From: Sphingomonadales bacterium
Lineage (GTDB): Bacteria; Pseudomonadota; Alphaproteobacteria; Sphingomonadales; Sphingomonadaceae
Reading direction: 5' to 3'
Length of the DNA: 64,000 bases
Assembly (NCBI GenBank): GCA_025362295.1
Contig: JANYGX010000010.1
Span: 26,388 to 90,387 of the forward strand
Shown: positions 7,606-34,290 of the stretch, in pieces
Layout of the letters: each line of letters begins with the position of its first letter
Position numbering within the stretch: position 1 is the first letter of the stretch
Translations under genes and position numbers: made by a program
The notes under the pieces: model-generated
Seen by the model: only the letters and a program-made list of their open reading frames with translations
What the model was told of the DNA's origin: nothing
Database searches by the model: none

Positions 7606-7728
7606 AGACGTTCCCTGAATTGGTTAATTTTCTATATATTATATATGGCGGTTTAGATAGTCAATCATGGTTATGACGGTTAACCAATAATTCACAAAGC
7701 CTATCAACGCACATCATAAACCACACAC

Positions 7729-7759
7729 AAAAACGCCCGACGTTTCCGCCGGGCGTTTT
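7729..7759 (-). terminator. Rho-independent terminator downstream of the OmpA-like gene
   Basis: The minus strand reads GAAAACGCCCGGCGGAAACGTCGGGCGTTTTTGTG: stem ACGCCCG/CGGGCGT followed by T5. Confidence 0.7.
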
Positions 7760-7781
7760 CAATTGTGTCTAACCTGTCCGC

Positions 7782-8912: not shown

Positions 8913-9069
8913 GGGGATACCTTTCGTTAGGTTGCAGAGCCCACCAACCATTGGTAGAGGCCTGATGCTGCACTAGCGCAGAGTCTTTTAAGATGCAAGC
9001 CTATGGTGCATTATCCTGTTGTAATAATGCATCACTTTTGCATTAACCATGTCGTTCAGCGTGCATTCA

Positions 9070-9567
9070 TCAAGTGGCAATAAGGCCGTGCCCACGGAGC
9101 GCGGTTAATATTTGGCCAAGGGTGGCGCGCGCCTGACTATCGATGGTTGTGCCACCAGAGGGCGCCGGAATGGCGCCAGACTGCGCCTGCACAACTGTTT
9201 TACCAGCAACACTGAGGCTCGACACCGGCCAATCGCCGTTGTGCCAAAATGTGCCGTCATACCAGACAAACATCAGCTCTAGCCTTGCCCAGGCCAGAAA
9301 GCCCGGCGGCACGCTGAGGTAACGCCAACCGCCGTCGGTCCACAACGCCAGCATACCAGTTTGTGTCGCCCAAGCACCGGTTGCCGCTGCTGGCACCAGC
9401 CAGAGTTGGCCAGATACCGGCGAGGCGGGCGGCGTCGCGAGATAGCGGCTTTCCAGCACGGGATGCGTCAGGCCATCAACACGGAGCAGCGCCTCGTTGT
9501 GAGTAATTTCTTTCTGGGCCTGGCCAGCGGACAGCAGCGGCAGCTGAAGACGGGGGGAGTCAGTCAT
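9070..9567 (-). CDS. DUF2793-type phage/GTA tail-fibre-like protein
   Basis: Start trimmed to MTDSPRLQLPLLSAGQAQKEITHNEAL (recalled DUF2793 signature QAQKEVTHNEAL). C-terminus ...ILTALRGHGLIAT is typical of the family. Sits directly after the g15-like gene. Confidence 0.7.
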   Translation of the reverse strand: MTDSPRLQLPLLSAGQAQKEITHNEALLRVDGLTHPVLESRYLATPPASPVSGQLWLVPAAATGAWATQTGMLALWTDGGWRYLSVPPGFLAWARLELMFVWYDGTFWHNGDWPVSSLSVAGKTVVQAQSGAIPAPSGGTTIDSQARATLGQILTALRGHGLIAT

Positions 9568-9648
9568 GGGGAAAGTCCTTAAGTTGAGAGTGAGACAAAT
9601 TTTTCGTGGTTCCAACTCAAGGCTGGAATGATGCGTTTGCGCCAGCGG

Positions 9649-11889
9649 CTAAAGCGTCACATTCACCGCGCCACCCGGACCGACCGCAGCACTCAGTTGT
9701 TGCACGGTGATCATCACCCCACTGACACTGGCCCCAAAATCCATGCTCTGATCCGCCCGCGCATAGGTCCAGCCCGGCGCAGTAACATCGACAACGCGCC
9801 GGACCACACCGCCAAGCGATACCGTGATCCGGTAGCGCTCACTTTCTTCCGCCAGCGGCACGTCGGTGCCGTCAAGCCAGGCAAAGCCATCGCGGCTGCG
9901 GCGGATCCAGCTGAGAGCGATATCACCGCTGGCACCCGTTGCGGCGTTCAGCCGGACAGGCGAGAGCGGCCGCAAGGCTTTACCCTGCACAAGGGTTGTT
10001 TGCGGTGTTACATCGCCAAGCGCGTTGCCAGGGCTGAGCGCTTTCCAAGTTTGGGTCGTGCCAACCGCCGACAGTGGCAGATTGAGGGCAATATCCGGCA
10101 GCGGACTGAGCAGGACAAACGGTTCACCCACCGCATGGCTGGATAGTGCATTGTCTGTGCCGCGCAAACCGCGCAGCAAGCCGGACAGGCGAAACTGGCC
10201 CGCCGCCAAAACAGTGACCGTGCGAAAGGCCAGCAGCTCTGATCCCAGCACAGCGAGATTGGCACCGGCAAGCACAGCCGCTGCTGAGCTGTTCAGCAGT
10301 GTATCGGTGCCGGCAACCAGTGCCACATCAACGGTGTTGTTCTCGTCCCAAAATCCGCTGGCACCAGCCGATAGCCGTGTCAACGCCGAGCCAAGTGGTG
10401 TTGGCCGCGAGACTGTTGCCGCTTGCGCGTAGCTGGTGCCGCCATCCTGCGACCACCAGACACCCGCCCGCCGCCAGCCAGGCAGCGGGCCGCTTGCCGC
10501 CACATAAAGCCGCGCGGCTTTTGGCACACTGGCCTCAATTGGCGGGAGATCGAGCACGGCCAGCACGGTTGGTCCATTGGGCGCACCAACTTGTGCCACA
10601 CCAGCCCCACCATCCGCGACCGCATTGCTGATGCCGTCCGCCGTTTGCAGCGGCTTCAGGCCAAGTGTCACCCCGCCTTCCTCAATCGCTACAGACGTGA
10701 CTTGCCACAATGCCCCCGGTTGCTCTGCCCAACCCAGAGTGTCCCCGGGCCGCACATCGGACCATGCTGGCCCCAGCCGCATCTCCAGCCGGTCACGCTC
10801 GCGCCAGCTGCGCGCCAGGCTCACCTCGGCCAGATTTTTGGCATCAACAGCTGCAAGCACGGCTGGCACGTCAAAGGTTTTTTTAGAGAGATAGCCGCCG
10901 TCCCGCCGCCGCGCCCGTTGCAGGCCGGTCTGATAATCGCGTGCCGGATCGAGAAAGCGCAACTGCAGCTCGCGCGGCAAAGCCTCGGCCGCTTGCCGGT
11001 CTTTGCGCAAGGCTGGCTTGCTACGATTGCCATCAGGCGGAAAGGCACCAAGATTGGCGACACCTGGCAGCACCCGCGCAGCGCCTTGTGTCACGGCCCG
11101 CACATTGAGCGTGCCGTCGTGCCCGTCGCTCACCATCGGTTTGATGCCACCAACCGCTTCAAGCACCGAGCGTGCCGTTGTATCCTGCGCCACGATAAAA
11201 CCGCTGACACCGCCCTCTGGCCCGCTCACGGCGCGCTTCCGCACATTGCACCTGGCGATCACATCATCAACCAGCGTTGTGAACGCCACTTGCGGGCCAC
11301 TGTCTGCAATCACCTCAAACGTCAGATTGGGAATCCGGTTGGCAAAGTCAGCCAGCGGCAGTTCCTCAAGCACAACATAAGCCATGCCCCGGTGCGCGGG
11401 GGCCTGCGCCATGCCAAGTGCGGCCTGCAGCAGCGCATCCGGCATTTGGTTTTCGCTGCCTGTGTAAAGCCGCAACGAACCACCCGGCATCAGCGTGCTG
11501 CCATCACCTGAAATCAGTTTGCCATCGGCCCAGATGCGCGCAATGCCGGCAATGGCACGGCCACTCAGGCCAACGGCAAAAGAGGCCGCGTAGGTATAGC
11601 TGTTTGTGCTGCCCGCACTTTGCTTGCCGCCTTGCGCCTGATCGGCCCGTCGCTCGATCAACCCCGTTGACCAGATGACATTGCCCGCCACCCGCACACG
11701 ACCATACACACGCGGCACAACTTCACCGTATGTTGCAGCCTGCACAGACAGATCTTTAAGGCGCGGACCATCATTGGATGACCCACCAAGAATGGCATGA
11801 TCAATAGAGGACCCAACAAACGCGCCAATCGCCTGACCAAGTGGACCAGCGACATAGTTGCCGACAGCCGAAAGAATGAGAGTTGCCAT
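9649..11889 (-). CDS. GTA g15-like host-specificity / baseplate 'megatron' homologue (short form)
   Basis: 746 aa. The N-terminus MATLILSAVGNYVAGPLGQAIG...YGRVRVAGNVIWSTGL...IARIWADGKL...LRLYTGSENQMPD...HRGMAYVVLEELPLADFANRIPNLTFEV matches the recalled g15 / lambda-J-like N-terminal module. It continues straight into a Phage-tail_3-like region. Confidence 0.7.
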   Translation of the reverse strand: MATLILSAVGNYVAGPLGQAIGAFVGSSIDHAILGGSSNDGPRLKDLSVQAATYGEVVPRVYGRVRVAGNVIWSTGLIERRADQAQGGKQSAGSTNSYTYAASFAVGLSGRAIAGIARIWADGKLISGDGSTLMPGGSLRLYTGSENQMPDALLQAALGMAQAPAHRGMAYVVLEELPLADFANRIPNLTFEVIADSGPQVAFTTLVDDVIARCNVRKRAVSGPEGGVSGFIVAQDTTARSVLEAVGGIKPMVSDGHDGTLNVRAVTQGAARVLPGVANLGAFPPDGNRSKPALRKDRQAAEALPRELQLRFLDPARDYQTGLQRARRRDGGYLSKKTFDVPAVLAAVDAKNLAEVSLARSWRERDRLEMRLGPAWSDVRPGDTLGWAEQPGALWQVTSVAIEEGGVTLGLKPLQTADGISNAVADGGAGVAQVGAPNGPTVLAVLDLPPIEASVPKAARLYVAASGPLPGWRRAGVWWSQDGGTSYAQAATVSRPTPLGSALTRLSAGASGFWDENNTVDVALVAGTDTLLNSSAAAVLAGANLAVLGSELLAFRTVTVLAAGQFRLSGLLRGLRGTDNALSSHAVGEPFVLLSPLPDIALNLPLSAVGTTQTWKALSPGNALGDVTPQTTLVQGKALRPLSPVRLNAATGASGDIALSWIRRSRDGFAWLDGTDVPLAEESERYRITVSLGGVVRRVVDVTAPGWTYARADQSMDFGASVSGVMITVQQLSAAVGPGGAVNVTL

Positions 11890-11902
11890 AATGTGATCCT
11901 GA

Positions 11903-11935
11903 TAAAAATCCTCCCCTGCTAGGGGAGGATTTTTC
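11903..11935. terminator. Perfect bidirectional intrinsic-terminator hairpin between the g14 and g15 homologues
   Basis: AAAAATCCTCCCC-TGCTA-GGGGAGGATTTTT: 9-10 bp GC-rich stem with A5 upstream and T5 downstream, so a stem plus U-tract forms on either strand. Confidence 0.7.
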
Positions 11936-12029
11936 CTTAACTTAATATCGATGAGTCTGTACTGGGGTAATGTGCTGGCCTATAAACCCATCCACCCGAT
12001 TACTGTGGCAATCTCGACTGAACCCCCGA

Positions 12030-12446
12030 CTAAACTATGGAAAACCGGTAGGCTCCCACCAGCCTTAAACTCCACGTTTCATCCAGATCATGCTCGACCA
12101 CGCGGCGAAACCGGATATCGGCATGAATGACACCAGCCCCAGTGGCAATGCCGAGATGGAGCGGCGTGCCACCAGCCGTGAACCGCAGCACATCCCCCGC
12201 CATAATCTCTGTAAAGCCAAGGGGTATCAGCTGCGCTGCCAGCAGCGCATCATCCAGGCGCGCAGGATTTTCTGTCAGACGGTAGTCTGCGTCTGTATTG
12301 TCGGCAAACCCGACGGCGCGCGCGGCAAACAGCACCAACCCGATACAATCAAGTCCGGTTGCTGGATCACGGCCCTGCAAGCGGAACGGCGCACCAACAC
12401 ACGACCGGGCGGCTTCAACAATTTTTTCACCTGGTATTTTAGCCAT
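12030..12446 (-). CDS. GTA g14-like NlpC/P60 (C40) cell-wall peptidase
   Basis: 138 aa. GRDPATGLDCIGLVLFAARAVG (catalytic Cys context) and ...GAGVIHADI (His). Overlaps the g13-like stop. Confidence 0.8.
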   Translation of the reverse strand: MAKIPGEKIVEAARSCVGAPFRLQGRDPATGLDCIGLVLFAARAVGFADNTDADYRLTENPARLDDALLAAQLIPLGFTEIMAGDVLRFTAGGTPLHLGIATGAGVIHADIRFRRVVEHDLDETWSLRLVGAYRFSIV

Positions 12447-13290
12447 TGGGATATCTCACCAGAGAATCGAGGCCAGGCACAAAAGGCTCGCCGCGAAAAT
12501 TCAACCGATTGTAAAATTTGTTGATGCAGCTGTCCTGTCGCTTGTCACAGCCAGCCGTGATGTCCAGCCGATCACCCACTTGCAGGCCAAGGCGGGGTGG
12601 TGCACGCAAACCAATTTGTATCGACGCCCCTGCCGACCCTGATGTCAGAATTTCGCCTTCATCGCTATCGTTGTTGCCAGACAGCCAGCGCACCCGCCCA
12701 TAAGCCAGATAACCGGCAAGCTGAAAATAACCGCTCACTGGCGCTGTGACCAAAAAGTTTTGCATGTCAATAACACGGGTGATGACCGCCTTGAATTTAT
12801 AAGGTTGCAGGTTAACACGGCACCGCGCATCGCCAAGCTCGGCTCGGCATTCCGGCGAATAGAGTTCCACAACCGGTGCGTCCAAGGCATCGGTAAGGCC
12901 GCGCACTTCAACAGAGAATTTTTTGTCTTCCTCACGCACGGTGCCAAAATGACCGGAAGAGAGCGCCACGCTGCCAGCATCCGGCTGCGACCAATCCACT
13001 AGAAACAAGCGAATTTCCGCACCATCAAAACGCCCAGCGCTAAGATCGCTGGCTTCAATCGCTGCATGGCTGAGCACACCGGCAAGTTCAATGGTATCGA
13101 CGGAAAACCCTGCCGACATGACCAGCGCACTGGGTGAGAACGAGGGTGTGGCCAGATAGCGCTGGCCATCGATGATAATATCGCGGTCGTGGTTGGTAAA
13201 ACCCAACACCACGCCGTCGCGCCGGCCAATACGCCAGCACAAAGCCGTGCTGGTGAGCGGGCCTGCGAGAAGATCAGTGATGGTTGTCAT
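12439..13290 (-). CDS. GTA g13-like hub protein (DUF2163 + BR0599 C-terminal domain)
   Basis: 283 aa. N-terminus LTSTALCWRIGRRDGVVLGFTNHDRDI. C-terminus CDKRQDSCINKFYNRLNFRGEPFVPG matches the recalled Phage_BR0599 motif. Confidence 0.8.
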   Translation of the reverse strand: MTTITDLLAGPLTSTALCWRIGRRDGVVLGFTNHDRDIIIDGQRYLATPSFSPSALVMSAGFSVDTIELAGVLSHAAIEASDLSAGRFDGAEIRLFLVDWSQPDAGSVALSSGHFGTVREEDKKFSVEVRGLTDALDAPVVELYSPECRAELGDARCRVNLQPYKFKAVITRVIDMQNFLVTAPVSGYFQLAGYLAYGRVRWLSGNNDSDEGEILTSGSAGASIQIGLRAPPRLGLQVGDRLDITAGCDKRQDSCINKFYNRLNFRGEPFVPGLDSLVRYPNG

Positions 13291-13378
13291 GATGGTGGCT
13301 CTCTATAATTAATATTTTAAATTTTTTCCTCCCCCCTTGCGGGAGAGAGGCAGAAAAAAACAGAGCGACGCTGGCCAA

Positions 13379-15709: not shown

Positions 15710-16272
15710 GCGCGTGACCCCGCTTGTTCAAGCGAGCGCCGCACGGCGGCGGCAATCTGCCCAGCACTGCGCGCCATGATGCGCGGCTCAGCCGCACCGC
15801 CCGTCACATTGACCGTGATCGCCACAGTCTGTTTGGCGGCTGCGCCGTTCGGCTGAACGCTGCCAGCGCCTTGCGGGATGAACAGCTCAGGGCCGCGCTC
15901 GCCGACAATATAGGGCTGACCGCTGGTGACTGCACCACCGCCAGTGCGGCCGGGCAAGCCGACAGCGCCAAGCAGCGATGACACCAGACTGCTCCCGACA
16001 CCACCACTGCCAAACAGGCTACCAAGGCCAGACTTCAGCGCGCTTGAGGCAATATCGGCAAGCACGCCAAGGGCTACTTTTTTGAAACTGTCAAAACTCA
16101 GCGAACCGGTTTTGACAAACTGTTCAAAGGCGCTGGTCAGGCGCTTACCAGTCGATTGACCAGCCACATCGAGCAGGTTTAAATCCTCTTTGGCTTTTTT
16201 GAGGTTTTGCGACAGTGCCGTGGTGTCGGCCTTCACCGCCACCACCAGGGTATCAAGGGTTGTTTCAGCCAT
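15706..16272 (-). CDS. GTA g11-like short tail tape measure protein
   Basis: Start trimmed to MAETTLDTLVVAVKADTTALSQNLKKAKEDL. C-terminal block GGGAVTSGQPYIVGERGPELFIPQGAGSVQP is the recalled TMP/g11 motif. Confidence 0.75.
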   Translation of the reverse strand: MAETTLDTLVVAVKADTTALSQNLKKAKEDLNLLDVAGQSTGKRLTSAFEQFVKTGSLSFDSFKKVALGVLADIASSALKSGLGSLFGSGGVGSSLVSSLLGAVGLPGRTGGGAVTSGQPYIVGERGPELFIPQGAGSVQPNGAAAKQTVAITVNVTGGAAEPRIMARSAGQIAAAVRRSLEQAGSRA

Positions 16273-16483
16273 GGGGAGCATCCGGAAAAAGTGTGATGAG
16301 TTTATGAAGATCGGTGCGCGTGACGCCATGCTCAGGCACAATGCCCAAACTCTCGCACCAGCCATGCCAAGCGAGTTGCACCTCGCGTGGTGTCAGTTGC
16401 CAGAAATCAGCTGGTGACCAGCCGCGCACGCCACACGCCCATTTCAAATGATTGTGTGCGTGTTTGCCAAAGCTGTCAGACAC
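16265..16483 (-). CDS. GTA g10.1-like tail assembly chaperone (rcc01693 family)
   Basis: 72 aa with WSPADFWQLTPREVQLAW. GTG start overlaps the g10 stop (GTGTCTGA). Confidence 0.7.
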   Translation of the reverse strand: MSDSFGKHAHNHLKWACGVRGWSPADFWQLTPREVQLAWHGWCESLGIVPEHGVTRTDLHKLITLFPDAPHG

Positions 16484-16781
16484 CGCCGAGCGCCTGTTGC
16501 ATCACTGCACGGAACACGGGCGTGAGCTGTGCAAGGCCAGCCTTCATGCAGGCCTCGCAAAACACATCCTGAAACAGCGTGGCTGATTTGGGTTCAACAC
16601 AGCACCAGAGCACAGTGACAAGCGATTGCAACGACAGCCGTCCATCACTGGCGGCATCAATAACCGCAAACAATGGCCCGACGGATTGCTCGGCGGCAAC
16701 CAGATTCGCATAGCTTGGTATGAGTGTATAGGTGGTGGTACCAAGCACCAGCGCCACCTCACCGCGGCTCATGTTGATCAT
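16476..16781 (-). CDS. GTA g10-like tail assembly chaperone
   Basis: 101 aa. RGEVALVLGTTTYTLIPSYANLVAAEQ...LQSLVTVLWCC is typical of the 'gene transfer agent family protein' found after the tail tube gene. Confidence 0.7.
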   Translation of the reverse strand: MINMSRGEVALVLGTTTYTLIPSYANLVAAEQSVGPLFAVIDAASDGRLSLQSLVTVLWCCVEPKSATLFQDVFCEACMKAGLAQLTPVFRAVMQQALGGV

Positions 16782-17187
16782 GACCCAAAGCTCACAGCAC
16801 CGGTCGATTGCAAAGTCATCGTGTAGGTGCGCTCGCCGTTGTAATCACCGGCAAAATCGAGCTTGGTGATGAAGAATTTACCGCGCAACGTGTCGCTGCT
16901 TTCAAACATCACGCTATAATCATCGACAACACTGCTGAGCGCATTGTTGCGCGCACGCAGTTCGGCCGCAGAATTCATAAATTACCCGAGCCTGTTAACG
17001 TCACACTCTTAAGCCCTGCGCCTGAGAGAATTTCACTCCAGCCGCCAGAGTTTTTGGTCGTGATATCAACCGGATTGGCATTGATGGCAAGCGTTGTGGC
17101 ACGCAAGCCCGCAATGGTCGTGTAGTTGGGTGGCAAGGCCCCATCGCCGATTTTCAAGAGAAAAGCCGAGCCTTTTTCAGCTGACAT
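16778..17187 (-). pseudogene. Major tail (tube) protein, TP901-1/g9 family, split by a 1-nt frameshift
   Basis: ORF 16975-17187 (MSAEKGSAFLLKIGDG...TIAGLRATTLAINANPVDITTKNSGGWSEIL...LTGSGNL*) and ORF 16778-16978 (MNSAAELRARNN...FFITKLDFAGDYNGERTYTMTLQSTGAVSFGS) together make one ~136-aa g9. The frames differ by 1 nt at GGTAATTTATGAATTC. Confidence 0.75.
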
Positions 17188-17229
17188 AGAATGTTCCTTT
17201 ATGTTGGGAGAGTGGTGAGTGGTTTATGG

Positions 17230-17260
17230 AAAAAAGCTAGATACCAGCCGGCTTTGGTAT
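17230..17260 (-). terminator. Terminator-like hairpin between the g8 and g9 homologues
   Basis: The minus strand reads CATACCAAAGCCGGCTGGTATCTAGCTTTTTTCC: 6-7 bp stem, then a 5-nt spacer and T6. Confidence 0.4.
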
Positions 17261-17285
17261 GACGCCTAAATATTAAAGTGCGCAC

Positions 17286-17684
17286 TCAGGTCGCAAAGAT
17301 CCGCACACGAAATTCAATAATGCCGTGGTGTGTCAGCCCGTCAGGATCAACCAGATTGATCGCCTGCAAAAACCGCAGCGAAATCAGTTTGAAACCGGCA
17401 ACCGCAAACGGCGTCGCAAGTGCAGCCTGCACCAGGGCCATCAGTTGCTTGGCCTCTTGCCGACCGGCCTTGCGTGACCAGATGTGCACGCTGATGCGGT
17501 GCTCGCTTGCCGCCACATCCTTGGTCGAATAATCCACCACCACATCATCGCCAATCGACACATAGGGCAAGGCTTGATCCTGCGGCGGCATATCGAACAC
17601 ACCGGTGATTACAGCGCCAAGCGGTGCAGACGCCACCAGCGCCCCATAAACCGCTTGCTGCAAGGCAAGGGATGCAGCGGTCAT
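17286..17684 (-). CDS. GTA g8-like tail terminator (DUF3168)
   Basis: 132 aa. LQQAVYGALVASAPLGAVITGVFDMPPQDQALPYVSIGDD...ISVHIWSR is a typical DUF3168 pattern. Confidence 0.7.
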   Translation of the reverse strand: MTAASLALQQAVYGALVASAPLGAVITGVFDMPPQDQALPYVSIGDDVVVDYSTKDVAASEHRISVHIWSRKAGRQEAKQLMALVQAALATPFAVAGFKLISLRFLQAINLVDPDGLTHHGIIEFRVRIFAT

Positions 17685-17941
17685 AGCACACCGCCGGTGC
17701 GTATAGCGCTGATGGACTGGGTGATCAGCCGCAATTCCGGCTGGTGCACCGTGCCAAATTCGCGCTGCGGCCCGAGTGTGCCGCTGGCCAATACAACATA
17801 ACCATTGCCGCGTTCCTCTATGCTCAGCGCTGCCGCATTGCCACCGCGTGATATCACTTCGCTAACAATACGGTTAGCAAGCGCAAACGCCCTTTTTTTT
17901 GTAGCTTCAACGGCCTTTCGTTCGAGACTGAAATCGATCAT
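17681..17941 (-). CDS. HK97 gp10-like tail-completion protein (not recalled in the canonical RcGTA set)
   Basis: Start trimmed to MIDFSLERKAVEATKK (ATGA overlap with the upstream stop). REFGTVHQPELRLITQSI resembles the EFGT....PFL.PA gp10 motif. Confidence 0.45.
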   Translation of the reverse strand: MIDFSLERKAVEATKKRAFALANRIVSEVISRGGNAAALSIEERGNGYVVLASGTLGPQREFGTVHQPELRLITQSISAIRTGGVL

Positions 17942-18273
17942 TGTTCGCGCTCCTGTTGTGTTATGAGAACAAGCCTGTCGAGCTTCTCGGGCGGGCGGTC
18001 GAGCGACAGGATAGACAGTTTTTTGCCGTTCCACACCACGCGCCAGCGCACATCGATATCGGGCGCATAGCGCAGCGTGATCTGGTAGCGGTTGAGGGTT
18101 GCGACACGACCGGCATAGTTTGTTTCTGCCATCGGGAGGCTTGTGACTGCAGCCCAGCGTGTATCGACACTGACCCAGCTGCGACTTTTGCCGCCGTAGC
18201 CATCTGTTGCATCGATCGCGCGTTCAAAGCGCACCCGCTGCCACATGGTGCCGGAAAATTCTCCATTGCTCAT
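17938..18273 (-). CDS. GTA g7-like head closure / head-tail adaptor protein
   Basis: Start trimmed to MSNGEFSGTMWQRVRFERAIDATDGYGG...WAAV...YQITLRY (SPP1 gp16/HK97 gp9-like). GGGG Shine-Dalgarno 8-9 nt upstream. Confidence 0.7.
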   Translation of the reverse strand: MSNGEFSGTMWQRVRFERAIDATDGYGGKSRSWVSVDTRWAAVTSLPMAETNYAGRVATLNRYQITLRYAPDIDVRWRVVWNGKKLSILSLDRPPEKLDRLVLITQQEREQ

Positions 18274-18284
18274 GTTGAACGCCC

Positions 18285-18830
18285 CTATGCCAGACGCAGG
18301 CGTTTGTAGGGCCGCCACAGCGCTGAGGCAGCAAGCGCAAGCCCCGCCGTTTGCGGCTCGTCGCGGTGGCTGTAAAGATGCACCGCCTGACGAATAATGC
18401 CAAGCCGCAACGCTTCAGCAAGGCCGTTCCAATCGCTGGCCATACCAGCGATGTAGTCAAGGGTGATGCGCGACAACGGCAAGGGTGCCACAGCCAGTTT
18501 CACTGTGGCTTCATCGTTCATATCCGTGCTGACTTGCACAGTTGGCAGTGCAACCGCAGTAGTCACCCCAAGTGGATCGAGCAGGGTGAGAGCCACAAGA
18601 CTGATAAAGGGTGCCTTACCAAGCGCTATGGTCTGCAGGGCAACCCTGTTTTCACGCCACACGCTGGAGAGCAGAACCAGACCCGTAAAATCTTCTGCCT
18701 GGGCAAGGGCTGCACGCAGCAAACCGCTTAACAGGGCATCATCATCGGCCGTGTCGATGCGCAGATAGGCTTTCAGTTCTGACAGCAGCGTGGCTGGCAA
18801 AACCGCTGGCTGTATAAGCGTCATGGTCAT
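18285..18830 (-). CDS. GTA g6-like head-tail connector (gp6 family)
   Basis: Start trimmed to MTMTLIQPAVLPATLLSELKAYLRIDTADDDALLSGLLRAALAQAEDFTG. ATGA overlap with the preceding gene's stop. Confidence 0.75.
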   Translation of the reverse strand: MTMTLIQPAVLPATLLSELKAYLRIDTADDDALLSGLLRAALAQAEDFTGLVLLSSVWRENRVALQTIALGKAPFISLVALTLLDPLGVTTAVALPTVQVSTDMNDEATVKLAVAPLPLSRITLDYIAGMASDWNGLAEALRLGIIRQAVHLYSHRDEPQTAGLALAASALWRPYKRLRLA

Positions 18831-19111
18831 CAGCGTAACTCCACACGCACAGAGAGCGAGCGCGTTTCCGCGCGGCCATCGCTGAACACCACATGATTGG
18901 CAATGTGATACAAATGCCCAGCAACACCGCCGATCATGGTGGCGGTGGTTTTTGTTGTTGTGAAACTTTGTGTTTGCACGGCAAGGCCACCGGGTTCGGT
19001 TGGCATAACACTCCATGCGCTGGTGGTGAGTGTCTGCACATCGAGATACCCCGCTGCCCAGTCAATGGCATAATCCAGCACCGCATCCGGCGCTTTCAGA
19101 TAGGTGGACAT
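18830..19111 (-). CDS. Small phage virion-associated protein (IDW-motif family; function unknown)
   Basis: 93 aa. MSTYLKAPDAVLDYAIDWAAGYL...ANHVVFSDGRAETRSLSVRVELR, translationally coupled to g6. I only vaguely recognise the family as phage fibre/adaptor-like. Confidence 0.5.
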   Translation of the reverse strand: MSTYLKAPDAVLDYAIDWAAGYLDVQTLTTSAWSVMPTEPGGLAVQTQSFTTTKTTATMIGGVAGHLYHIANHVVFSDGRAETRSLSVRVELR

Positions 19112-19186
19112 GTGTGTGGTCCTTTATGTGTTGGGTTGAAAATAATTGAGGGGCTGCAAAAAGCCATAACTGCCATATGGATTGCC

Positions 19187-19561
19187 CTAAACCGGGTTGG
19201 CGATTTCCACATCCCATGCGGTGATGTTGACTGTGCCGCCGGTTGTCAGCGCCTGTGCCGTGCTTGTGGTCACGTAGAGCAACCGTTGCCCGGTGACATC
19301 CAATAGGGCCACGTGCGTGGCAGACCCTGCAGTGAGCACCGGCACGGCTGTTTTTGCCGCTATGGTTGCCCGCCTGCCGCTGGTGACACCAGCTGCCAGT
19401 ATGAAATCAGCCGTTGCCATCACAACCTCGGCAAGCTTCATCGTGGTGTTGGCATCGGTGTAGGTGAGCGGTTGTGCTGAACACACCACCATTTTTGTTA
19501 CATTGGTTTTGAGCACAGTGAGAGCGCCATCGAGCACATCGGTGCTGACTGATTTGGCCAT
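19187..19561 (-). CDS. Hypothetical phage structural-module protein
   Basis: 124 aa, Thr/Ala/Val-rich (likely beta-rich). Same strand and tight spacing with its neighbours. No family recognised. Confidence 0.45.
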   Translation of the reverse strand: MAKSVSTDVLDGALTVLKTNVTKMVVCSAQPLTYTDANTTMKLAEVVMATADFILAAGVTSGRRATIAAKTAVPVLTAGSATHVALLDVTGQRLLYVTTSTAQALTTGGTVNITAWDVEIANPV

Positions 19562-19579
19562 GGGATTTTCCTTTTTGGG

Positions 19580-20110
19580 TTATGAAAATGATACGGGGGT
19601 AACACGGGGTTGGCGCAACACCGGTTGCAGGCGCGGATCAACAGAGGCGATTTGCAGGCGCTGATCCTTACTGGCTGGCGTGACGTGCGCACGCGCTATG
19701 AGTATGAGTGCGACAAGTGCATTGGTCGCACTGCTGGTATGTTTACTGCTGGCAGCATTGAGTGACCACATTGGCAACAGCGCTGTCGATGTGGACATGA
19801 TGCCATGCAGTGCGCTTGATGCTTGCAGGGTATAAACACTATTGAGGACCGGCAATTGAGCCGTTTGGTCGTGCCTGGCAAACGTAACCGTTGTTGTAAC
19901 ACTTGCCGAAAGCGCCGACAGGCCTGCTGCCTGGCTTGCCAGCGTGTGCCGTGCAAAATTTATTGCAAGGCTTGCTGGTGCAACGGCAGCAAGTGTGGCA
20001 GCCTGCGCGCTATGCAGGTGTTTTGCACTGGCACACGTGACAGCCACCGGCAGACCGAGACCGGCAACGCCTGCCTTGTGCGCATGTTTTGCATTGGCAG
20101 CTGTGGGCAT
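19580..20110 (-). CDS. Tandem-repeat protein (about seven repeats of ~18 residues with A-x-(A/S)-(K/R)-H cores)
   Basis: Start trimmed to MPTAANAKHAHKAG (AAGG about 10 nt upstream). Repeat cores: ANAKHAH, ASAKHLH, NFARHTL, FARHDQ, SSALHG, ASSKHT, ARAHVT. Coding status is uncertain because of GC-rich shadow ORFs on the opposite strand. Confidence 0.4.
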   Translation of the reverse strand: MPTAANAKHAHKAGVAGLGLPVAVTCASAKHLHSAQAATLAAVAPASLAINFARHTLASQAAGLSALSASVTTTVTFARHDQTAQLPVLNSVYTLQASSALHGIMSTSTALLPMWSLNAASSKHTSSATNALVALILIARAHVTPASKDQRLQIASVDPRLQPVLRQPRVTPVSFS

Positions 20111-20274
20111 GGAACGTGCCTTTGTGAGGGTGATGCGTGAAAAACGGCTAAACTTTGCTCTCTCCCCCACAAGGGGGAAGAGGCAGAGTCATTCGGTATT
20201 AATGGCACTATCGTGTGCCGCCGTGGCCGGAAGGGGAAACAGCCACGGCGGTACGTTCAACATGTCACGAGGGG

Positions 20275-21475
20275 TTATGACACATCGAATTTCATCAACT
20301 TGATCGCCTCGCTGTTGAGCACTGCGCCGCCGACGCGTTTGGTTGCATAAAACTGCACATAGGGTTTGTTGGTGAACGGATCGCGCAGGATGCGTGTGCC
20401 AACACGGTCCGCAATAATATACCCGTGATAGAAATTACCAAAAGCGATTGACAGGCTGCCGGTACCGACATCCGGCATGTCTTCCGCTTCAACCACATCG
20501 TAACCCAGTAAGGTTGGCGAGCGGCCTTCGGAAAAACTTGGTTGCCAGATGAAATGCCCGGTCGCATCCTTAAATTTACGGATGATCGAGACCGTTTTTG
20601 AATTCATCACCCAGACAGCGCCTTGTCGGTAGGTGGCGCGCAGGCTGTGCAGCAGATCGATCAGCTGTTCGGCTGGTGCTGTCGCCGAAAACCCGCCGGC
20701 AACGCCGGTGGCATTATATTGCAAGGTGCCAAAAGCCCGTGTTGCATCGGGGGTGGCGGCAATCGGGTAGGTCAGAAAACCTTTTGGTTTGGCTGTGCCG
20801 TTGCCATTGATAAACGCCGTGCCTTCCTTCTGGGCAAAGTCGCGGGCAATTTCTTCAGTGAGCCATTGTTCGACATTGAAGAACGCATCATCCAGCATGA
20901 ACTGTGTGGCGGACGGGTTGGCATAAAGATCACCCGCTGGCGGAAATTTGCGTGAACGTGGTCGCCGCTGTTGTTGGCCGTGCATCCTGCTCAGCGGCCC
21001 AGCCGGATGTGAGGCCAGACGATGCGACCAGCTTGCTATAGCCAGATGTGCCAACTTGCACATTTTGCGCGACGGCCCTCAGCGGCGATACAGCCCGCAA
21101 GCGCAATTCGATATTGGCATCGATTTGCGGGGTGACAGTGTAGCCACCTTCTGCCGGCACGCTGATATCGAGCGCTTTGGTTTGTAGCGCCTGCAAACCG
21201 GTTTCATTGCCGCGACGCAGGTATGAACCAAACGCGGCCTTCAGTTCAGGGTCTTCCTCGACAACAGCGGCTGCCGATTGCAAGGGGCGCTGGGCAGCCC
21301 GGCTGATTTTTTCCATGCGCGATTTCACCTGAATTATTTCTGCATCAATGCGGTTCAGTTTTTCATTCAGCAGCACATCGTGCCGAGCCGTATCGATGTC
21401 GTTTACAGTGTCTGCAAACGCCGTGTGCACCGCCTTCATGTCATGCGAGGCGGCTTTTGTTTCATAGGTGGTCAT
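20275..21475 (-). pseudogene. HK97-family major capsid protein (g5), interrupted by a 1-nt frameshift
   Basis: ORF 20930-21475 ends ...ARPTTAATTFTQISASG*. ORF 20275-21063 carries ...PPAGDLYANPSATQFMLDDAFFNVEQWL... to the C-terminus ...AIKLMKFDVS. Skipping one T in CAAATTTCCGCC gives the contiguous ...TFTQIPPAGDLYA... and a capsid of about 398 aa. Confidence 0.8.
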
Positions 21476-21933
21476 TGTGGTTGGTCTCCAGTTGTTGGGG
21501 TTTGTGTTGGCGGGTTTTGCACCATCAGCCGTGCCAGAGGCTGCATGGGAAACGTCACCACCGAGATTTCGACAAGCTCAAGCTCGGTGAGGATACGGAT
21601 TTTACGAAGTCTGTTGAGGCTGAACTGGCGCACTCGGTAGCCGATGGAGAGGCCGTTCAGGGCGCCGTCGCACACAAGGGCATTGGCATCAGAACCAATT
21701 TGTGCACCCGTGGTGAAATGGCCGCTAATTTTTAGGCCGCGCGTGTCTTCAGCAATGCTTTCAATCACCCCGATCGGGTTTTTGATATCATGCTGCCAGA
21801 GCAGTGGCAGAGCCTGCTTTCTGGCAAGCGCTTTTTGAAAAGCGCCAGGCATAATCACATCGCCGCCGCTGTCCGGCATAGAAAATACTGCAGCATAACC
21901 GTCGAAACGGTTTGCCGTTATTGGCATGGTCAT
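21472..21933 (-). CDS. HK97-family prohead protease (g4)
   Basis: 153 aa. FDGYAAVFSMPDSGGDVIMPGAFQKAL...LPLLWQHD...PIGVIESIAEDTRGLKISG. Overlaps the capsid start. Confidence 0.85.
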   Translation of the reverse strand: MTMPITANRFDGYAAVFSMPDSGGDVIMPGAFQKALARKQALPLLWQHDIKNPIGVIESIAEDTRGLKISGHFTTGAQIGSDANALVCDGALNGLSIGYRVRQFSLNRLRKIRILTELELVEISVVTFPMQPLARLMVQNPPTQTPTTGDQPQ

Positions 21934-21955
21934 ACATTTTCCTTGGATTATAAAT

Positions 21956-22270
21956 TCAGTGCAACAACACGTTTGGCAGGGCGCGCCACTTGATCAGCAG
22001 CAGGCAAAACACACCAATGACAGCAAGGCGAAACACCCAGCCGATCAGACTGTGGGTGATCGAGCGTTTGGCATCGCGCCAAGCGTCCAGCAAATCCCGC
22101 ACGTCGCGCAGATCCTGTGCGGCAACGGCATCCTCCAGCCCCAGGCGGGCAAGCGCCCGCGACGCCCCCAGTTCGGCTGCCTCTTCCACCAGCGCATGAA
22201 TTGTCACCACAGCAGCGCCCTCACGCGTTGCCTGATCGGCAAGCGCTGCAAGCAGGCCATGGCTGGTCAT
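21956..22270 (-). CDS. Small C-terminally membrane-anchored protein, g3.5 (rcc01685)-like in position and architecture
   Basis: 104 aa. Helical/acidic N-terminal part, then the TM helix LIGWVFRLAVIGVFCLLLI. Located between portal and protease, as g3.5 is in RcGTA. Confidence 0.5.
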   Translation of the reverse strand: MTSHGLLAALADQATREGAAVVTIHALVEEAAELGASRALARLGLEDAVAAQDLRDVRDLLDAWRDAKRSITHSLIGWVFRLAVIGVFCLLLIKWRALPNVLLH

Positions 22271-22348
22271 GATGGTTATCTTTCAGTGTTTGTAGATGAG
22301 GCTAATTTGCGAAAATGCCATCCCCGCTAAAAATCGGGAGGCATATTT

Positions 22349-22519
22349 TCAAATCGTCAGCACAACCAGCCCGTCATCCGCATCACGGATCACTGTGAAC
22401 TGATACGGCTCTTGCTGTTTTGGTTTGGGCCGGGTGATGGTGACGGTGGGCAACTCAAGTTCGCCTTTTCGCGGTGCATCCTGAACAACAGCAGCAATAC
22501 ATACAGCAATCATCATCAT
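22349..22519 (-). CDS. Possible small membrane/secreted protein
   Basis: Trimmed ORF MMMIAVCIAAVVQDAPRKGELELPTVTITRPKPKQQEPYQFTVIRDADDGLVVLTI. Supported only by position and strand. Confidence 0.3.
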   Translation of the reverse strand: MMMIAVCIAAVVQDAPRKGELELPTVTITRPKPKQQEPYQFTVIRDADDGLVVLTI

Positions 22520-22641
22520 GGCAACATCCTTAACAGAAATTTTACACCTGTTGACACGCAAGCCTTGTGCCACGCAAAATTAGTCTGCAATTTCCGACTT
22601 GAATCAGAGATATTGATTAATCGTACCAATATAATGTCAAG

Positions 22642-23850
22642 TTATCCGTCACTGATGTCTTCACGCAACATGGTTAACCCAAGCAGCTGGCGTTTTTCGG
22701 TGTCGCTGAGAAACGCCGCCGCACTCACCTGCGCCCAGACTTGCGCACGGTCAGTCGCCAGCGCTGGAATAGAATCGAGATCAATGCCGAGTTCAAGCTC
22801 TGGCCAATAGAGTTGCAACCAGCCGGAGAGGCTTGCAAGAATGCGTGTCGATAGCGGCAACAGCGTGGCGCGCCACAGCGCCTTGCTCGCCTCCTGATAG
22901 TTGCTATAGGTGGCGTCCCCCGGAATATTAAGCAGTATCGGCGGCACACCAAACGCCAGCGCAATGTCGCGCGCAGCGGCATGGCGCGAATTGATAAAAT
23001 CCATATCCGCTGGTGTCATCGACAGCGGCTGCCATTTCAGGCCGTCTTCCAGCAACAGTGGCCGCCCGGCATTGTCGGCCCCCTGAAAATGATCGGCCAT
23101 TTCACCCTTAAGCCGCGTGTACTGATCCGCCGTGAGGTTGGTTGCGCCGTCGCCGGGTTCAAACACCAGAGCCCCTGAGGGGCGTGCGGCATTCTGCAAC
23201 AATCCAAGCGTCCACTGCGCTGCAGCGTTGTGCGTTTCTATGGCAAGGGCCGCTGAATCAACCCCGCCTAGCCCGTAATGATCGTCCAGCGGATTGAACG
23301 TTTTCAGGTGCAGCAAGTCGGACCGGCCCGTGAGCGGATCGACAGCAAAATTCACCACTGTGCCCGCCACTTGATATTTGTAGGTGGCCGGCCAGCCGGT
23401 GGAACTCGCGACCACTGTCACCCGCTCTGGTCGCAGCAGATAGAGCTCCGCTGGGGCCCCGTCATGCCCCTCGACAAGTTCAATATAGGCATTGCCGTGC
23501 AACATCAGATAGCTCGCTAACGCTTCCATAAATGCCGGACCGCTTTGCGCAGCGTTGGGCTGGGCCAGCAGTTTGAGCACGGGATGCTGCGGGCTTGCCC
23601 GGCCCTGTTCCGACGCAGTGAGTTCAAGCGAGGCCAGACCGTCACTCAGCATCTGCACCGCGCGTCGCGCCACCGGATTGCGCTGGTAGCCATCGCGTGT
23701 GAGTGCCTCGTAGCCCAGCGCCCCAAAGCGCGGCAGGCCGGTTGTGAGGTAAGCCGCAAATGTCGAGCGGGATATGCTGCCACTGGGCGGCAAATTGGTG
23801 CGACTGGCTTTGGTTGCAAAACGGTGGCGCAAACGCGAGAGCAGGGTCAT
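22642..23850 (-). CDS. HK97-family phage portal protein (g3)
   Basis: 402 aa. ...YLMLHGNAYIELV...FNPLDDHYGL...LLNIPGDATYSNYQEASKALW... is typical of portal proteins. Confidence 0.9.
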   Translation of the reverse strand: MTLLSRLRHRFATKASRTNLPPSGSISRSTFAAYLTTGLPRFGALGYEALTRDGYQRNPVARRAVQMLSDGLASLELTASEQGRASPQHPVLKLLAQPNAAQSGPAFMEALASYLMLHGNAYIELVEGHDGAPAELYLLRPERVTVVASSTGWPATYKYQVAGTVVNFAVDPLTGRSDLLHLKTFNPLDDHYGLGGVDSAALAIETHNAAAQWTLGLLQNAARPSGALVFEPGDGATNLTADQYTRLKGEMADHFQGADNAGRPLLLEDGLKWQPLSMTPADMDFINSRHAAARDIALAFGVPPILLNIPGDATYSNYQEASKALWRATLLPLSTRILASLSGWLQLYWPELELGIDLDSIPALATDRAQVWAQVSAAAFLSDTEKRQLLGLTMLREDISDG

Positions 23851-23953
23851 GAGCGATGGTCCTTTGTGATCAGAAAAGTGATAGTATAGAATTTAGACAA
23901 GTGGCGCTAAGCTTTGCGAGCTCTCCCGCAAGTAGAGAGAAGTAGAAAACGAT

Positions 23954-25273
23954 TTATAATGATCTCAATTGCGGCACGGCGGCCAGTGCACCAAGCGCAA
24001 GTTCAGTCACCGCCCACACGAGCGCGTCAGCGCGGTCTGGCGAGCGCGTGGCACCGGCATAGCCGCCGCCAATCTGCAAGCCGCAAAGCTCATCCTCCAG
24101 TGCTGAAAAGGCCCGGGCATGGTGCACATGGCCGCGCTCATAGAGTGCGGCAACCGGCTCGGCGCGCGCGACCTTGCCGCGTGAGGCCCGCACCAGTTTG
24201 AGAGGCAGCACAGCGTTCTGTGCCCGTAAAACAGACCCCACCAGATCGCCACCATTGTTGACTTCCGCCACAATCCGGTCTGCACCAACGCGGGCAGCAA
24301 CATCAACAGCCACGCGCGCCCAGTGTTCTGGTGAGGCACCCTGAAGGCTTGCATCTGCCAGCACATAAACATGGCCATCGGCGGCAATGCCGGCGGCAAC
24401 AATGCCGCAGGCATCGGCTGTGGCACTGTGCGACACTGGCGGATCGACCGCCACCACAACGCGCATCAGCTCTGGCACGCTGTCCACATGGCAGGCGTCC
24501 ATCAGCGCGCGGCTGAACAGCGCGCCTTCGATATCCTCGATAAAATCACCATCGATTTCCTGGCGCCCCATTCTGGTGCCTGCATAGGCGCGCTCCAGCG
24601 ACAGCACAAAATCGGCCGGAAGCGCTGCCAGATTGTCGTGCATGCGGCCACGCGCCACGATGGTGCGCTCTGCCACCAACATTTTTTTGATAAGACCAAT
24701 CGGGCGCGGTGTGGTGGTGACGCACGCCCGCGGGTGCTTGCCCAGCCGCAAGCCCATTTGTAGGTTCATCCACACAGCCTCTGTATTGGGCCACTTCGCC
24801 AATTCATCACACCAAGCAAAATGGTGTTGCCCGCCGCGCAGGCCGTCTGCATCTTCAGCGGAATACACCAGCGCTTGTGCGCCACTTGGCCACAGCAACC
24901 GCCGACGGGAGATTTCATAGCGGGGCCGCGCATGATCAGGTGCTATGGCCATCAACCCGCTTTCACCTTCGATCATCACCTCGCGCGCTTCGTTGTAGGA
25001 AGCCGCAACCAGGGCAACACGGCAACGCGGATGCTTCGTCACACACGCCCGTATCCACTCCGCTCCCGTGCGAGTTTTGCCAAAGCCGCGACCGGCCAAC
25101 ACCAGCCAGGTGCGCCAGGTGTCATGGGCTGGCGGCAACTGATTGGGTCGTGCCCAGAAGCGCCAGTCTTTGGCCAGCGCTGCAAGCCGCTCCGGGGGCA
25201 GATCGGCAAGCACGGCACGACGCTCCGCCGCCGAAAGTGCCGACAGCTGCTGGGCAAGCGATGTTAGAGACAT
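23954..25273 (-). CDS. Terminase large subunit (g2)
   Basis: Start trimmed to MSLTSLAQQLSALSAAERRAVL (the tracked ORF has a 95-aa implausible extension). LVLAGRGFGKTRTGAEWI Walker-A-like motif. Nuclease half ...VVAVDPPVSHS...DACGIV. Confidence 0.9.
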   Translation of the reverse strand: MSLTSLAQQLSALSAAERRAVLADLPPERLAALAKDWRFWARPNQLPPAHDTWRTWLVLAGRGFGKTRTGAEWIRACVTKHPRCRVALVAASYNEAREVMIEGESGLMAIAPDHARPRYEISRRRLLWPSGAQALVYSAEDADGLRGGQHHFAWCDELAKWPNTEAVWMNLQMGLRLGKHPRACVTTTPRPIGLIKKMLVAERTIVARGRMHDNLAALPADFVLSLERAYAGTRMGRQEIDGDFIEDIEGALFSRALMDACHVDSVPELMRVVVAVDPPVSHSATADACGIVAAGIAADGHVYVLADASLQGASPEHWARVAVDVAARVGADRIVAEVNNGGDLVGSVLRAQNAVLPLKLVRASRGKVARAEPVAALYERGHVHHARAFSALEDELCGLQIGGGYAGATRSPDRADALVWAVTELALGALAAVPQLRSL

Positions 25274-25355
25274 AGTGGATACTCCTGCATGGCGGTGGGC
25301 GGCGGTATGTTCAGACATGTGGCGAACAAACGAGAGCGGAAGAAAAGCTTTGTGT

Positions 25356-25958
25356 TCACTCGCCCAAGTGTTCTGGACCGAGCCTGTTCTCAGTGACACC
25401 ATCACCATCACTCTCGCCGTCCCGTTTTGCAGCTGCCAGCCGTGCCAGTCTTGCCTCAATTTGCGTGCGCACATCGGCGGTTTCATCCACCACACCCGAA
25501 CCCACTTCAGCAAACGCCTCGGGTCGCCGGTTGCGCAGCATGAACATCGCCAGCGCATCGGAATAGTGTTTGTAGGTGCCCTCGCATTTGCCTTTGTAGA
25601 TGAGAGGTTTGTCGAGACCGTGGATCACCCGGTCGAGCAGCACGGCTTCCAGCCCATCGAGCGCCTGATTGATGGCAATGTGCCAGGCTGCAGCAAATGC
25701 CGGATTTTTACGGCGCTCCGCATAGGCATGCCACGGCGCCATGTTCATCTGCAAAGCGCTCTGGCGCACATTGGCGGTATCTGTCAGTCGCACCAGAAAT
25801 TCATGCCGGCGCTTTTCATTCCAGATGAATTTTTTGAGCGGTAGTTTTTTACCGACACGTTTTTTTACTGGTTTGGCGACCGCTGGTGATTTTTTTTTGC
25901 TTCGTATGGGCACAGCGACTTTTGCTGGTGTTTGTGTTTTTTCAGTCAATGGAAGCAC
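25356..25958 (-). CDS. Terminase small subunit-like DNA-binding protein
   Basis: 200 aa. Lys-rich N-terminus, then EKRRHEFLVRLTDTANVRQSALQMNMAPWHAYAERRKNPAFAAAWHIAINQALDGLEAVLLDR...YSDALAMFMLRNRRPEAF, the pattern recalled for alphaproteobacterial phage TerS proteins. The start (GTG 25958 or TTG 25949) is uncertain. Confidence 0.55.
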   Translation of the reverse strand: MLPLTEKTQTPAKVAVPIRSKKKSPAVAKPVKKRVGKKLPLKKFIWNEKRRHEFLVRLTDTANVRQSALQMNMAPWHAYAERRKNPAFAAAWHIAINQALDGLEAVLLDRVIHGLDKPLIYKGKCEGTYKHYSDALAMFMLRNRRPEAFAEVGSGVVDETADVRTQIEARLARLAAAKRDGESDGDGVTENRLGPEHLGE

Positions 25959-27529: not shown

Positions 27530-27640
27530 GCAAAAAATCCTTCATCAAAAGTGATTCGCAAAGGCTAACCGAATTATGGGCTTGTAGGAAAGCTATTTAA
27601 CCGTTACGGTGTTTTCATCAATCATTCTGGAGAGTTACAT

Positions 27641-34279: not shown

Positions 34280-34290
34280 CCCCACACCTA

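Follow-up and report, generated by a model that had tools for sequence, protein, structure and literature searches.

The DNA analyzed here, referred to as the window, is a 64,000-nt stretch of contig JANYGX010000010.1 from a Sphingomonadales bacterium. Between positions 9070 and 25958 its minus strand carries a head-tail gene cluster related to that of the gene transfer agent (GTA) of Rhodobacter capsulatus, RcGTA. Searches of Pfam, NCBIfam and PHROGs revealed 23 co-linear head-tail open reading frames (ORFs), running from the small terminase (TerS) to the g15 megatron and a DUF2793 gene; a preliminary description, made without database searches, had counted at least seventeen such genes in the RcGTA order. 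Family profiles together with PDB matches to RcGTA chains identified homologues of the RcGTA head-tail proteins in conserved order, and PDB sequence searches gave direct matches to two proteins of RcGTA, its distal tail protein and its megatron (6tba). The structural set is not intact in the sequenced strain, in which the genes of the major capsid protein and the tail tube protein are frameshifted. All features are listed in Table 1.

The 776-aa g12 product was used as the query in a scan of species-representative genomes, one genome per species. This identified 580 stretches encoding a full-length relative of the g12 fusion, nearly all of them in Sphingomonadales and neighboring groups. In the best 80 of these 580 stretches (L001-L080), which were used for locus comparison, the window proteins recur and their order is unchanged. 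Matches were found to g13 in 78 loci, to g15 in 74, to the DUF2793 protein in 65 and to the DUF6127 protein in 50, although far-upstream genes such as the last are undercounted because the loci extend only 10 kb upstream of g12. An OmpA-like gene lies immediately downstream of the cluster in 62 of the 80 loci.

Closer relatives were also available. With the repaired capsid sequence as the query, an 87%-identical protein (contig L081) and a 69%-identical protein (contig L082) were found, and a contig of a metagenome-assembled genome, L087 (GCA_965193485.1), shares about 80% DNA identity with the window. L081, L082 and L087 correspond to the window one for one in gene content, with intact genes for a capsid protein of 400-405 aa and a tube protein of 136 aa in all three; L088 carries these same genes too. 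The upstream flank of L087 is arranged as in the window, with an S8 peptidase gene, a helix-turn-helix (HTH) gene, a DUF6456 gene and a 156-aa ORF on the opposite strand. Judged by HslU, the nearest named kin of the host are Pedomonas, Parapedomonas and Sphingosinicella, at 74-75% identity; the host is a poorly sampled lineage, remote from named genera.

Ratios of nonsynonymous to synonymous substitution (dN/dS) were calculated against L081 by the Nei-Gojobori method and were estimable for 16 genes. They range from 0.04 to 0.3, and the three most constrained genes are the portal (0.041), the repaired tube (0.043) and the repaired capsid (0.058). Saturation at synonymous sites left orf176 and the adaptor without a ratio.

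The block sits among core genes, as originally reported, and is bracketed by an OmpA-like gene (7782-8951) and dnaN (30961-32094). On the OmpA side are the OmpA-like porin, a DUF7453 gene, an IalB-like gene, scoAB-type CoA transferase genes, tRNA-Val and hslVU; on the dnaN side are the S8 peptidase gene, dnaN, apaG and an O-acetylhomoserine sulfhydrylase-type gene. The G+C content of the cluster, 55-61%, is the same as that of these core flanks. The same neighbors across the host lineage, together with purifying selection, indicate vertical inheritance. In the comparison of synteny with relatives that the preliminary description had suggested, the cluster is vertically conserved, with the OmpA-like gene downstream as above and a regulator pair upstream in all four loci examined for it. 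Synteny throughout the order, strong purifying selection and a base composition like that of the host all point to an element that has been domesticated and is inherited vertically.

An active divergent GTA, a decaying GTA and a defective prophage had all been proposed at first. The last of these, in which the cluster would be the remnant of an ordinary temperate HK97-like siphophage and not a domesticated GTA, draws on the fact that every structural gene has phage homologues; for the capsid, identity to the capsids of Pseudomonas phages reaches 47%. The families of the NCTSP domain and of TerS are phage families, a cI/LexA-fold repressor is encoded close by, and two structural genes are broken. 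However, the cluster occupies the same place order-wide, between the OmpA-like gene downstream and the repressor and GafA pair upstream, and its dN/dS values are unlike those of a decaying remnant. A prophage would be expected to carry an integrase gene, attL and attR, and replication and lysis genes beside the structural module. Family searches of the window ORFs found no integrase, replication or lysis genes in the block, as had been noted from the start, or in its flanks, and a search for att-like direct repeats flanking the block gave only chance-level matches. Apart from tRNA-Val (4078-4153), which lies 5 kb from the cluster with host genes between, Rfam and tRNA scans of the window gave no match. 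A scan of IMG/VR returned 80 contigs with a window-type g12, all of them cluster-sized (4.7-20.5 kb) and none phage-sized. Cultured phages gave capsid matches of at most 47%, as against 50-60% for Sphingomonadales clusters. With order-wide synteny and no full-length phage carrying this gene set among the IMG/VR contigs, we consider the defective-prophage explanation distinctly improbable.

The nature of the adjacent repressor also speaks against a prophage. The preliminary description had seen no repressor switch inside the block; it missed a gene of the GafA family and a divergent repressor gene, which sit just outside 9070-25958. GafA homologues are annotated as DUF6456 (PMC9638019, PMC9765227), and the DUF6456 protein of the window is a putative dedicated activator of the GafA type; a PDB sequence search with it gave nothing useful. 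For the repressor an AF2 model was built from a 35-sequence alignment, with a predicted local distance difference test score (pLDDT) of 89.7. Its best full-length Foldseek matches in PDB are a lambda-186 hybrid repressor, LexA and lambda cI, and its C-terminal domain matches the C-terminal domains of cI and LexA. In the repressor family an invariant GDYR stands at the place of GDSM in LexA, and FGR is found at the position of the catalytic Lys; the Ser/Lys dyad of autocleavage is missing. The repressor is a conserved gene of the host lineage, 55-60% identical across genera, and the divergent pair of repressor and DUF6456 genes was found upstream of the cluster in four of the four loci examined: L082, L087, L089 (Pedomonas mirosovicensis) and L091 (Sphingomonas sp. 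LT1P40). In a five-locus alignment of the region between the two genes, GGTTAAAT..CTTTCCTACAAG is kept in the window, L087, L082 and the Sphingomonas locus L091, and may be regarded as a candidate operator or promoter element. No CtrA box (TTAA-N7-TTAA) was found in the window. In Caulobacter, RogA represses gafYZ and consists of an HTH and an S24-like domain without catalytic residues (PMC9632790). The AF2 model, the Foldseek matches and the GDYR and FGR motifs indicate the same type of architecture in the window repressor. By analogy, the repressor/activator pair matches the regulation of a GTA by RogA and GafYZ and not a prophage lysogeny module.

The two frameshifts, which had been noticed at the outset, are real in the record and private to the sequenced strain. 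The capsid gene is represented by two fragments, at 20930-21475 (Pfam profile positions 1-72) and 20275-21063 (positions 74-280). The reading frame is lost through the deletion of 2 nt between 20946 and 20945, and a premature TGA follows at 20930-20932; the window reads CAAAT--TTCC where L081, L087 and L088 have CAAATCAT(T/C)CC, and the site is outside any homopolymer. The tube gene is likewise split into 16975-17187 (Phage_tail_2 positions 2-66) and 16778-16978 (positions 71-132). Here TT is replaced by A at 16982, with a net loss of 1 nt and a stop at 16975-16977. The window sequence GGTA-ATTTATG corresponds to GGTATTTTTATG in L083 and L084, two Logan contigs derived from different runs; they share 99.5% identity with the window across some 430 nt and stay in frame. 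A single unsplit match was found in all 58 related genome loci with a capsid match and in all 70 with a tube match. The 2-nt deletion would cut the major capsid protein after about 180 residues and the net 1-nt loss would cut the tube protein after 70. Exact-sequence look-ups with the portal, g12, orf124, orf176 and the truncated capsid fragment gave no match, and no conspecific contig spanning the capsid lesion was found by this means.

Could both frameshifts be sequencing or assembly errors in the record of a functional GTA? The tube lesion does sit in a T-run (TATTTTTA to TAATTTA), the rest of the cluster is intact and strongly constrained, and near-identical environmental contigs carry an intact tube gene. 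However, the truncated products, capsid-N (181 aa), tube-N (70 aa) and tube-C (66 aa), have each been recorded for two contigs, which come from two sources (NCBI and Logan); this speaks against an assembly artefact. The 2 nt missing from the capsid gene were lost away from homopolymers, and the tube lesion combines a substitution with a deletion and is not a simple run-length error. About 30 other genes of the window show full-length domain coverage and none of those checked is split; errors would have had to hit only the two most abundant structural genes in 64 kb. Genome-wide sequencing error was ruled out, as the other genes are intact. An error in the record is rather unlikely on this evidence. 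As a further alternative, full-length capsid and tube proteins could be produced by programmed ribosomal frameshifting, and at the tube site the stop of the upstream frame does overlap an ATG of the downstream frame (AAT TTA TGA). Against this, neither site has a canonical slippery heptamer, the capsid would require a +1 shift five codons before the stop, and both proteins are needed at hundreds of copies per particle. Since near-identical conspecific and congeneric sequences encode capsid and tube in a single frame, programmed recoding is very unlikely indeed, and we give it almost no weight.

The simplest reading of both frameshifts is that they are two genuine, strain-private and very recent mutations. 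They are predicted to abolish the two most abundant structural proteins, with loss of particle production. More speculatively, the double knock-out of capsid and tube may reflect selection to escape lethal GTA production. Overall, the data make it likely that 9070-25958 is a Sphingomonadales-type RcGTA-like GTA head-tail cluster, vertically inherited at a conserved chromosomal position and very recently inactivated in the sequenced strain. Among the three options first proposed, a decaying GTA fits best, at the very earliest stage of decay, the remaining genes being intact and under purifying selection.

Table 1. Genes and other features of the GTA-like cluster and its regulatory region in the window. 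L-numbers designate related loci and contigs; dN/dS values are against L081.
Feature	Position	Strand	Evidence and remarks
RogA-like repressor candidate, 188 aa	27641..28207	+	XRE HTH (HTH_3/HTH_31, residues 4-61) and LexA/cI-fold C-terminal domain
Divergent promoter/operator region, repressor-gafA	27530..27640	.	conserved element GGTTAAAT..CTTTCCTACAAG (candidate)
GafA-family activator, 245 aa	26792..27529	-	DUF6456 at residues 116-244, Pfam E = 7e-40
156-aa ORF between gafA and TerS	26107..26577	+	ribosome-binding site before ATG; same place in L087, L088
Small terminase TerS, 197 aa	25356..25949	-	phrog_4044 E = 3e-21; TTG start after GAAGGAG; 197-aa gene at same position in L087
Large terminase TerL, 439 aa	23954..25273	-	Terminase_6N and Terminase_6C; 439-440 aa in L081, L087
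Portal, HK97-type	22642..23850	-	Phage_portal E = 5e-81; TIGR01537 portal_HK97
57-aa ORF, g3.5-position	22349..22522	-	56-57 aa in L081, L085, L086; dN/dS 0.18
DUF6127 protein	21956..22270	-	Pfam E = 2e-24
S78 prohead serine protease	21472..21933	-	Pfam E = 8e-30
HK97-fold major capsid gene, split	20275..21475	-	Pfam halves in different frames
Two G+C-rich stem-loops right after capsid gene	20160..20251 (20218-20251, 20160-20182)	-	fold z = -3.2
orf176	19580..20110	-	hypervariable, His-rich repeats
orf124, 124 aa	19187..19561	-	conserved, accessory module; dN/dS 0.066
Gp77-like adaptor	18830..19111	-	Pfam PF23148 E = 4e-25
Head-tail adaptor, gp6/g6-type	18285..18830	-	TIGR02215 E = 8e-23
Head completion/closure protein, g7-type	17938..18273	-	Phage_HCP E = 7e-17; TIGR01563
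87-aa ORF	17681..17944	-	86-aa gene at same position in L081, L087, L083, L084; dN/dS 0.11
Tail completion protein, g8-type	17286..17684	-	Tail_completion_gp17 E = 1e-30
Tail tube gene, split	16778..17187	-	Phage_tail_2 halves
Tail assembly chaperone, g10-type	16476..16781	-	Phage_TAC_11 E = 9e-12
Second chaperone ORF, g10.1-type	16265..16483	-	Phage_TAC_6 E = 3e-8
Short tape measure, 189 aa	15706..16275	-	weak tape-measure matches; 188-189-aa gene at same position in relatives
g12 fusion, 776 aa	13379..15709	-	NCTSP_N, TIM barrel and DUF2460 (Pfam); TIGR02217; PDB 6tba, 9lc0, 8gtc
Hairpin after g12, between U- and A-tracts	13321..13361	-	folding
g13 baseplate hub	12439..13290	-	TIGR02218 E = 2e-68
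g14 NlpC/P60 peptidase	12030..12446	-	Pfam E = 8e-5
Intrinsic-terminator-like palindrome, g14-g15 gap	11902..11934	-	perfect 14-bp stem then UUUUUAU; z = -2.1
g15 short megatron, 746 aa	9649..11889	-	NF048004 GTA_megatron, 500 bits
DUF2793 protein, tail-fibre-type N domain	9070..9567	-	Pfam E = 8e-28; PHROG tail-fibre families

Several features had been listed in the preliminary description as departures from the canonical RcGTA layout, and comparison with relatives changes their meaning. TerS is indeed large and of phage type, but this is no peculiarity of the window: it has the same length in L087 and is 166-258 aa long in other relatives. The "extra gp10-like gene" proved to be half of an ordinary pair of TAC_11 and TAC_6 chaperone genes, also called in L081 and L082. 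The three additional genes after the capsid are present, although as an accessory module shared with many relatives and not as a trait of this locus. The remodelled g12 and g15 are a fusion and a short megatron; neither is peculiar, the g12 fusion being encoded in the 580 stretches and the short g15 being shared by the loci compared. Features that look odd against RcGTA are the norm for this large clade.

Upstream of the cluster, the 156-aa ORF that separates gafA from TerS is Ala/Lys-rich, and family searches with it gave no match. In L082 the gafA-TerL interval (4603-6289) holds a 165-aa gene, an SLT lytic transglycosylase gene and a 166-aa gene, the last of which is probably TerS. Accessory content upstream of the cluster varies, as the 165-aa and SLT genes have no counterpart in the window. 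The TerL of Pedomonas mirosovicensis (L089/L090, about 6045-8485) is enlarged by some 560 nt, which are inserted in frame between the positions corresponding to residues 79 and 85 of the window protein. L090 thereby encodes a protein of 629 aa, and gene calling gave no TerL for L089; the insertion may be an intein or an inserted domain.

Hairpins in the intergenic gaps had also been described. We folded 11 such gaps and compared them with shuffled sequence: three are strongly folded, namely those after the capsid gene, after g12 and between g14 and g15, whereas the rest are no better than shuffled. The post-capsid hairpin is more stable than all four capsid-internal control windows of the same locus in 40 of the 64 relatives compared, as against about 13 expected by chance. 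The position of this stem-loop is conserved across the clade and its sequence is not; it may set capsid-to-downstream stoichiometry or stabilize the transcript. An origin of the hairpins as REP-like elements was ruled out, since the palindrome motif occurs in the window only at 13329 and 20160. A tandem-repeat search revealed no repeats resembling terGTA, the 150-bp repeats found in Caulobacter. In that genus, GafZ enables RNA polymerase to pass a terminator within the GTA cluster (PMC11150451), and a similar need for read-through is plausible for the window cluster.

By analogy with RcGTA and the GTA of Caulobacter crescentus (CcGTA), the system would work as follows. The non-cleavable LexA/cI-fold repressor would hold the divergent gafA off. 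On relief of repression, GafA would switch on a promoter upstream of TerS and may help RNA polymerase past the stem-loops that follow the capsid gene and g12 and that precede g15. TerS and TerL would then package host DNA by the headful into small HK97-fold heads, and a short tail would form from the 189-aa tape measure, the g12-g15 baseplate, the DUF2793 fibre and the accessory fibre/adaptor trio. In the sequenced strain the system is predicted to be non-functional, with capsid and tube truncated.

A number of observations weigh against this account of a recently inactivated GTA. The label of a GTA is drawn from homology, synteny and gene content. The second (Logan) contig with the truncated genes is known by record only, and a shared read-level error is possible. 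The likeness of the repressor to RogA is one of fold and architecture. The hairpins after g12 and before g15 are missing from L082, where the g14-g15 gap itself is absent, and a simple scan of the block for terminators and promoters showed no enrichment (30 terminators found, 23.5 +/- 5.2 expected). The g15 product scores 500 bits against a cut-off of 800 bits for NF048004 and matches profile positions 760-1298. TerS of the GTA type has been proposed to lack an N-terminal sequence-specific DNA-binding domain (PMC6854486). The window TerS has 197 aa, its match to the phage family phrog_4044 covers residues 37-157 only, and no Pfam or PDB match covers its N-terminus.

The three genes between capsid and adaptor, orf176, orf124 and the Gp77-like gene, were analyzed separately. 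Among 57 related loci with both capsid and adaptor, orf124 and Gp77 are found together in 22, Gp77 alone in 10 and neither in 25. This distribution marks the trio as an accessory module. Across loci, the gene preceding orf124 varies in length from 176 to about 1090 aa, and orf176 is only 42% identical to its L081 counterpart, compared with 65-90% for other genes. Iterative searches with jackhmmer aligned orf176 to the C-terminal His-rich repeats of 25 larger, fibre-like proteins (300-1000 aa) encoded at the same position; one of these larger homologues has a Laminin_G_3 (lectin) domain, the sole Pfam match among four checked. orf124 was found in 29 loci and has 1234 cluster representatives at E <= 0.001, with no Pfam family; one homologue adjoins a tailspike gene in Octadecabacter virus DB2. 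PDB sequence searches with orf124 and orf176, as well as a profile search with orf124, returned nothing useful, and a single-sequence structure model of orf124 had a pLDDT of 44 and was unusable. The Pfam name of the Gp77-like family refers to a podophage GP4 fibre-tail adaptor. From these similarities we infer that the trio encodes a putative fibre protein and two adaptors. It is conceivable, as a tentative suggestion, that the trio is an undescribed swappable host-recognition cassette of Sphingomonadales-type GTAs, made up of a fibre and the adaptors orf124 and Gp77-like. In such a cassette the conserved C-terminal His-rich repeats of the fibre (A-x-H-x-H-x-A) would anchor it to the particle, the N-terminal lectin/beta-helix head would be exchanged between lineages, and in the genus of the window the fibre would be cut down to the anchor alone.

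Some observations concern the neighborhood of the cluster. The OmpA-like gene that follows DUF2793 directly in 62 of the 80 loci does so from Sphingomonas to Emcibacter, which may reflect synteny of ancient origin or a functional connection with the GTA, e.g. an envelope or receptor role. The DUF7453 gene (489 aa, 6136-7605) lies in a stretch of 46.6% G+C between the IalB-like and OmpA-like genes and has no counterpart in any of the 80 related loci. The S8 peptidase gene (28268-30751) contains an 18-nt tandem array at 30404-30529 encoding a Gly-rich repeat, and an S8 subtilase gene also adjoins the repressor gene in L087; PADLOC returned only generic subtilase and HTH matches for the flanking genes. 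Further away, 34000-50000 has a G+C content of 46-49% against 55-58% elsewhere in the window and may be an acquired island. It encodes a TonB-dependent receptor, a DeoR regulator, a melibiase-like protein, GatZ, SIS and BadF-type ATPase proteins. The same stretch contains a pair of EgtB-like (DinB_2 and FGE-sulfatase, 46911-48143) and EgtD-like (Methyltransf_33, 48140-49132) genes, which suggests ergothioneine synthesis. Outside the window, GenBank entry MT840053.1, a 5.4-kb 'Bacteriophage sp.' from human feces, encodes a g12 fusion that is 47% identical in an alignment spanning residues 1-776, with 91% query coverage; the entry probably represents part of a GTA cluster of the Sphingomonadales type and not a phage.

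The cluster is an element of an already known kind and leaves current understanding unchanged; its contribution is a further RcGTA-like cluster, in a relative of Sphingomonadales that has been poorly sampled. Its compact repressor-activator-cluster layout, conserved across genera, is handy for testing the RogA/GafA model beyond Caulobacter and Rhodobacter. The natural and very recent loss of capsid and tube, with intact alleles in near-identical populations, could be used to ask what a GTA costs or brings to the cell.

Comparison with RcGTA (rcc01682-rcc01698; 6TBA/6TEH) shows a shared order from TerS through g15, including the two chaperones and the short tape measure, and a shared activator of the GafA family. 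In R. capsulatus gafA is at a distant locus, whereas in the window it adjoins the cluster. The window g12 has an additional N-terminal sheath-like and TIM-barrel extension of 575 aa, while its g15 lacks about 555 central residues (residues 15-196 match residues 27-204 of chain 8A of PDB 6tba). DUF6127, the 87-aa ORF and the three-gene module after the capsid are additions relative to RcGTA, and the window TerS, which matches a family of phage TerS proteins, has about twice the length of its RcGTA counterpart.

With CcGTA (PMC9632790, PMC11150451) the window locus shares a non-catalytic repressor with HTH and S24-like domains, an activator of the GafA/GafZ family (DUF6456) and, by analogy, intra-cluster stem-loops that would need read-through. 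It differs in that the activator is a single 245-aa protein and not a GafY and GafZ pair, in that the repressor and activator genes are adjacent, divergent and beside the cluster, and in that repeats like the 150-bp terGTA repeats do not follow the first gene.

The N-terminal 565 residues of g12 (NCTSP_N and TIM barrel) match the non-contractile tail sheath proteins of phages (PDB 9lc0/9yf4; Acinetobacter and phAPEC8-like phages). Many phages carry such a module, and in the window it is fused to a distal tail protein of the Rcc01695 type. The sheath is a separate protein in most of the phages listed, but in one Pseudomonas phage it is fused as in the window, at 27% identity.

The window cluster is essentially gene-for-gene identical to the Sphingomonadales-type clusters surveyed earlier (Shakya et al. 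2017; Kogay et al. 2019, 2020, 2022), at about 45-60% amino acid identity. For head-tail clusters, additional conserved ORFs with no assigned function have been reported, as has variability at the g7 locus (PMC5721377, PMC6821227, PMC7360931, PMC9765227). Among the related loci compared here, the window strain alone has broken capsid and tube genes.

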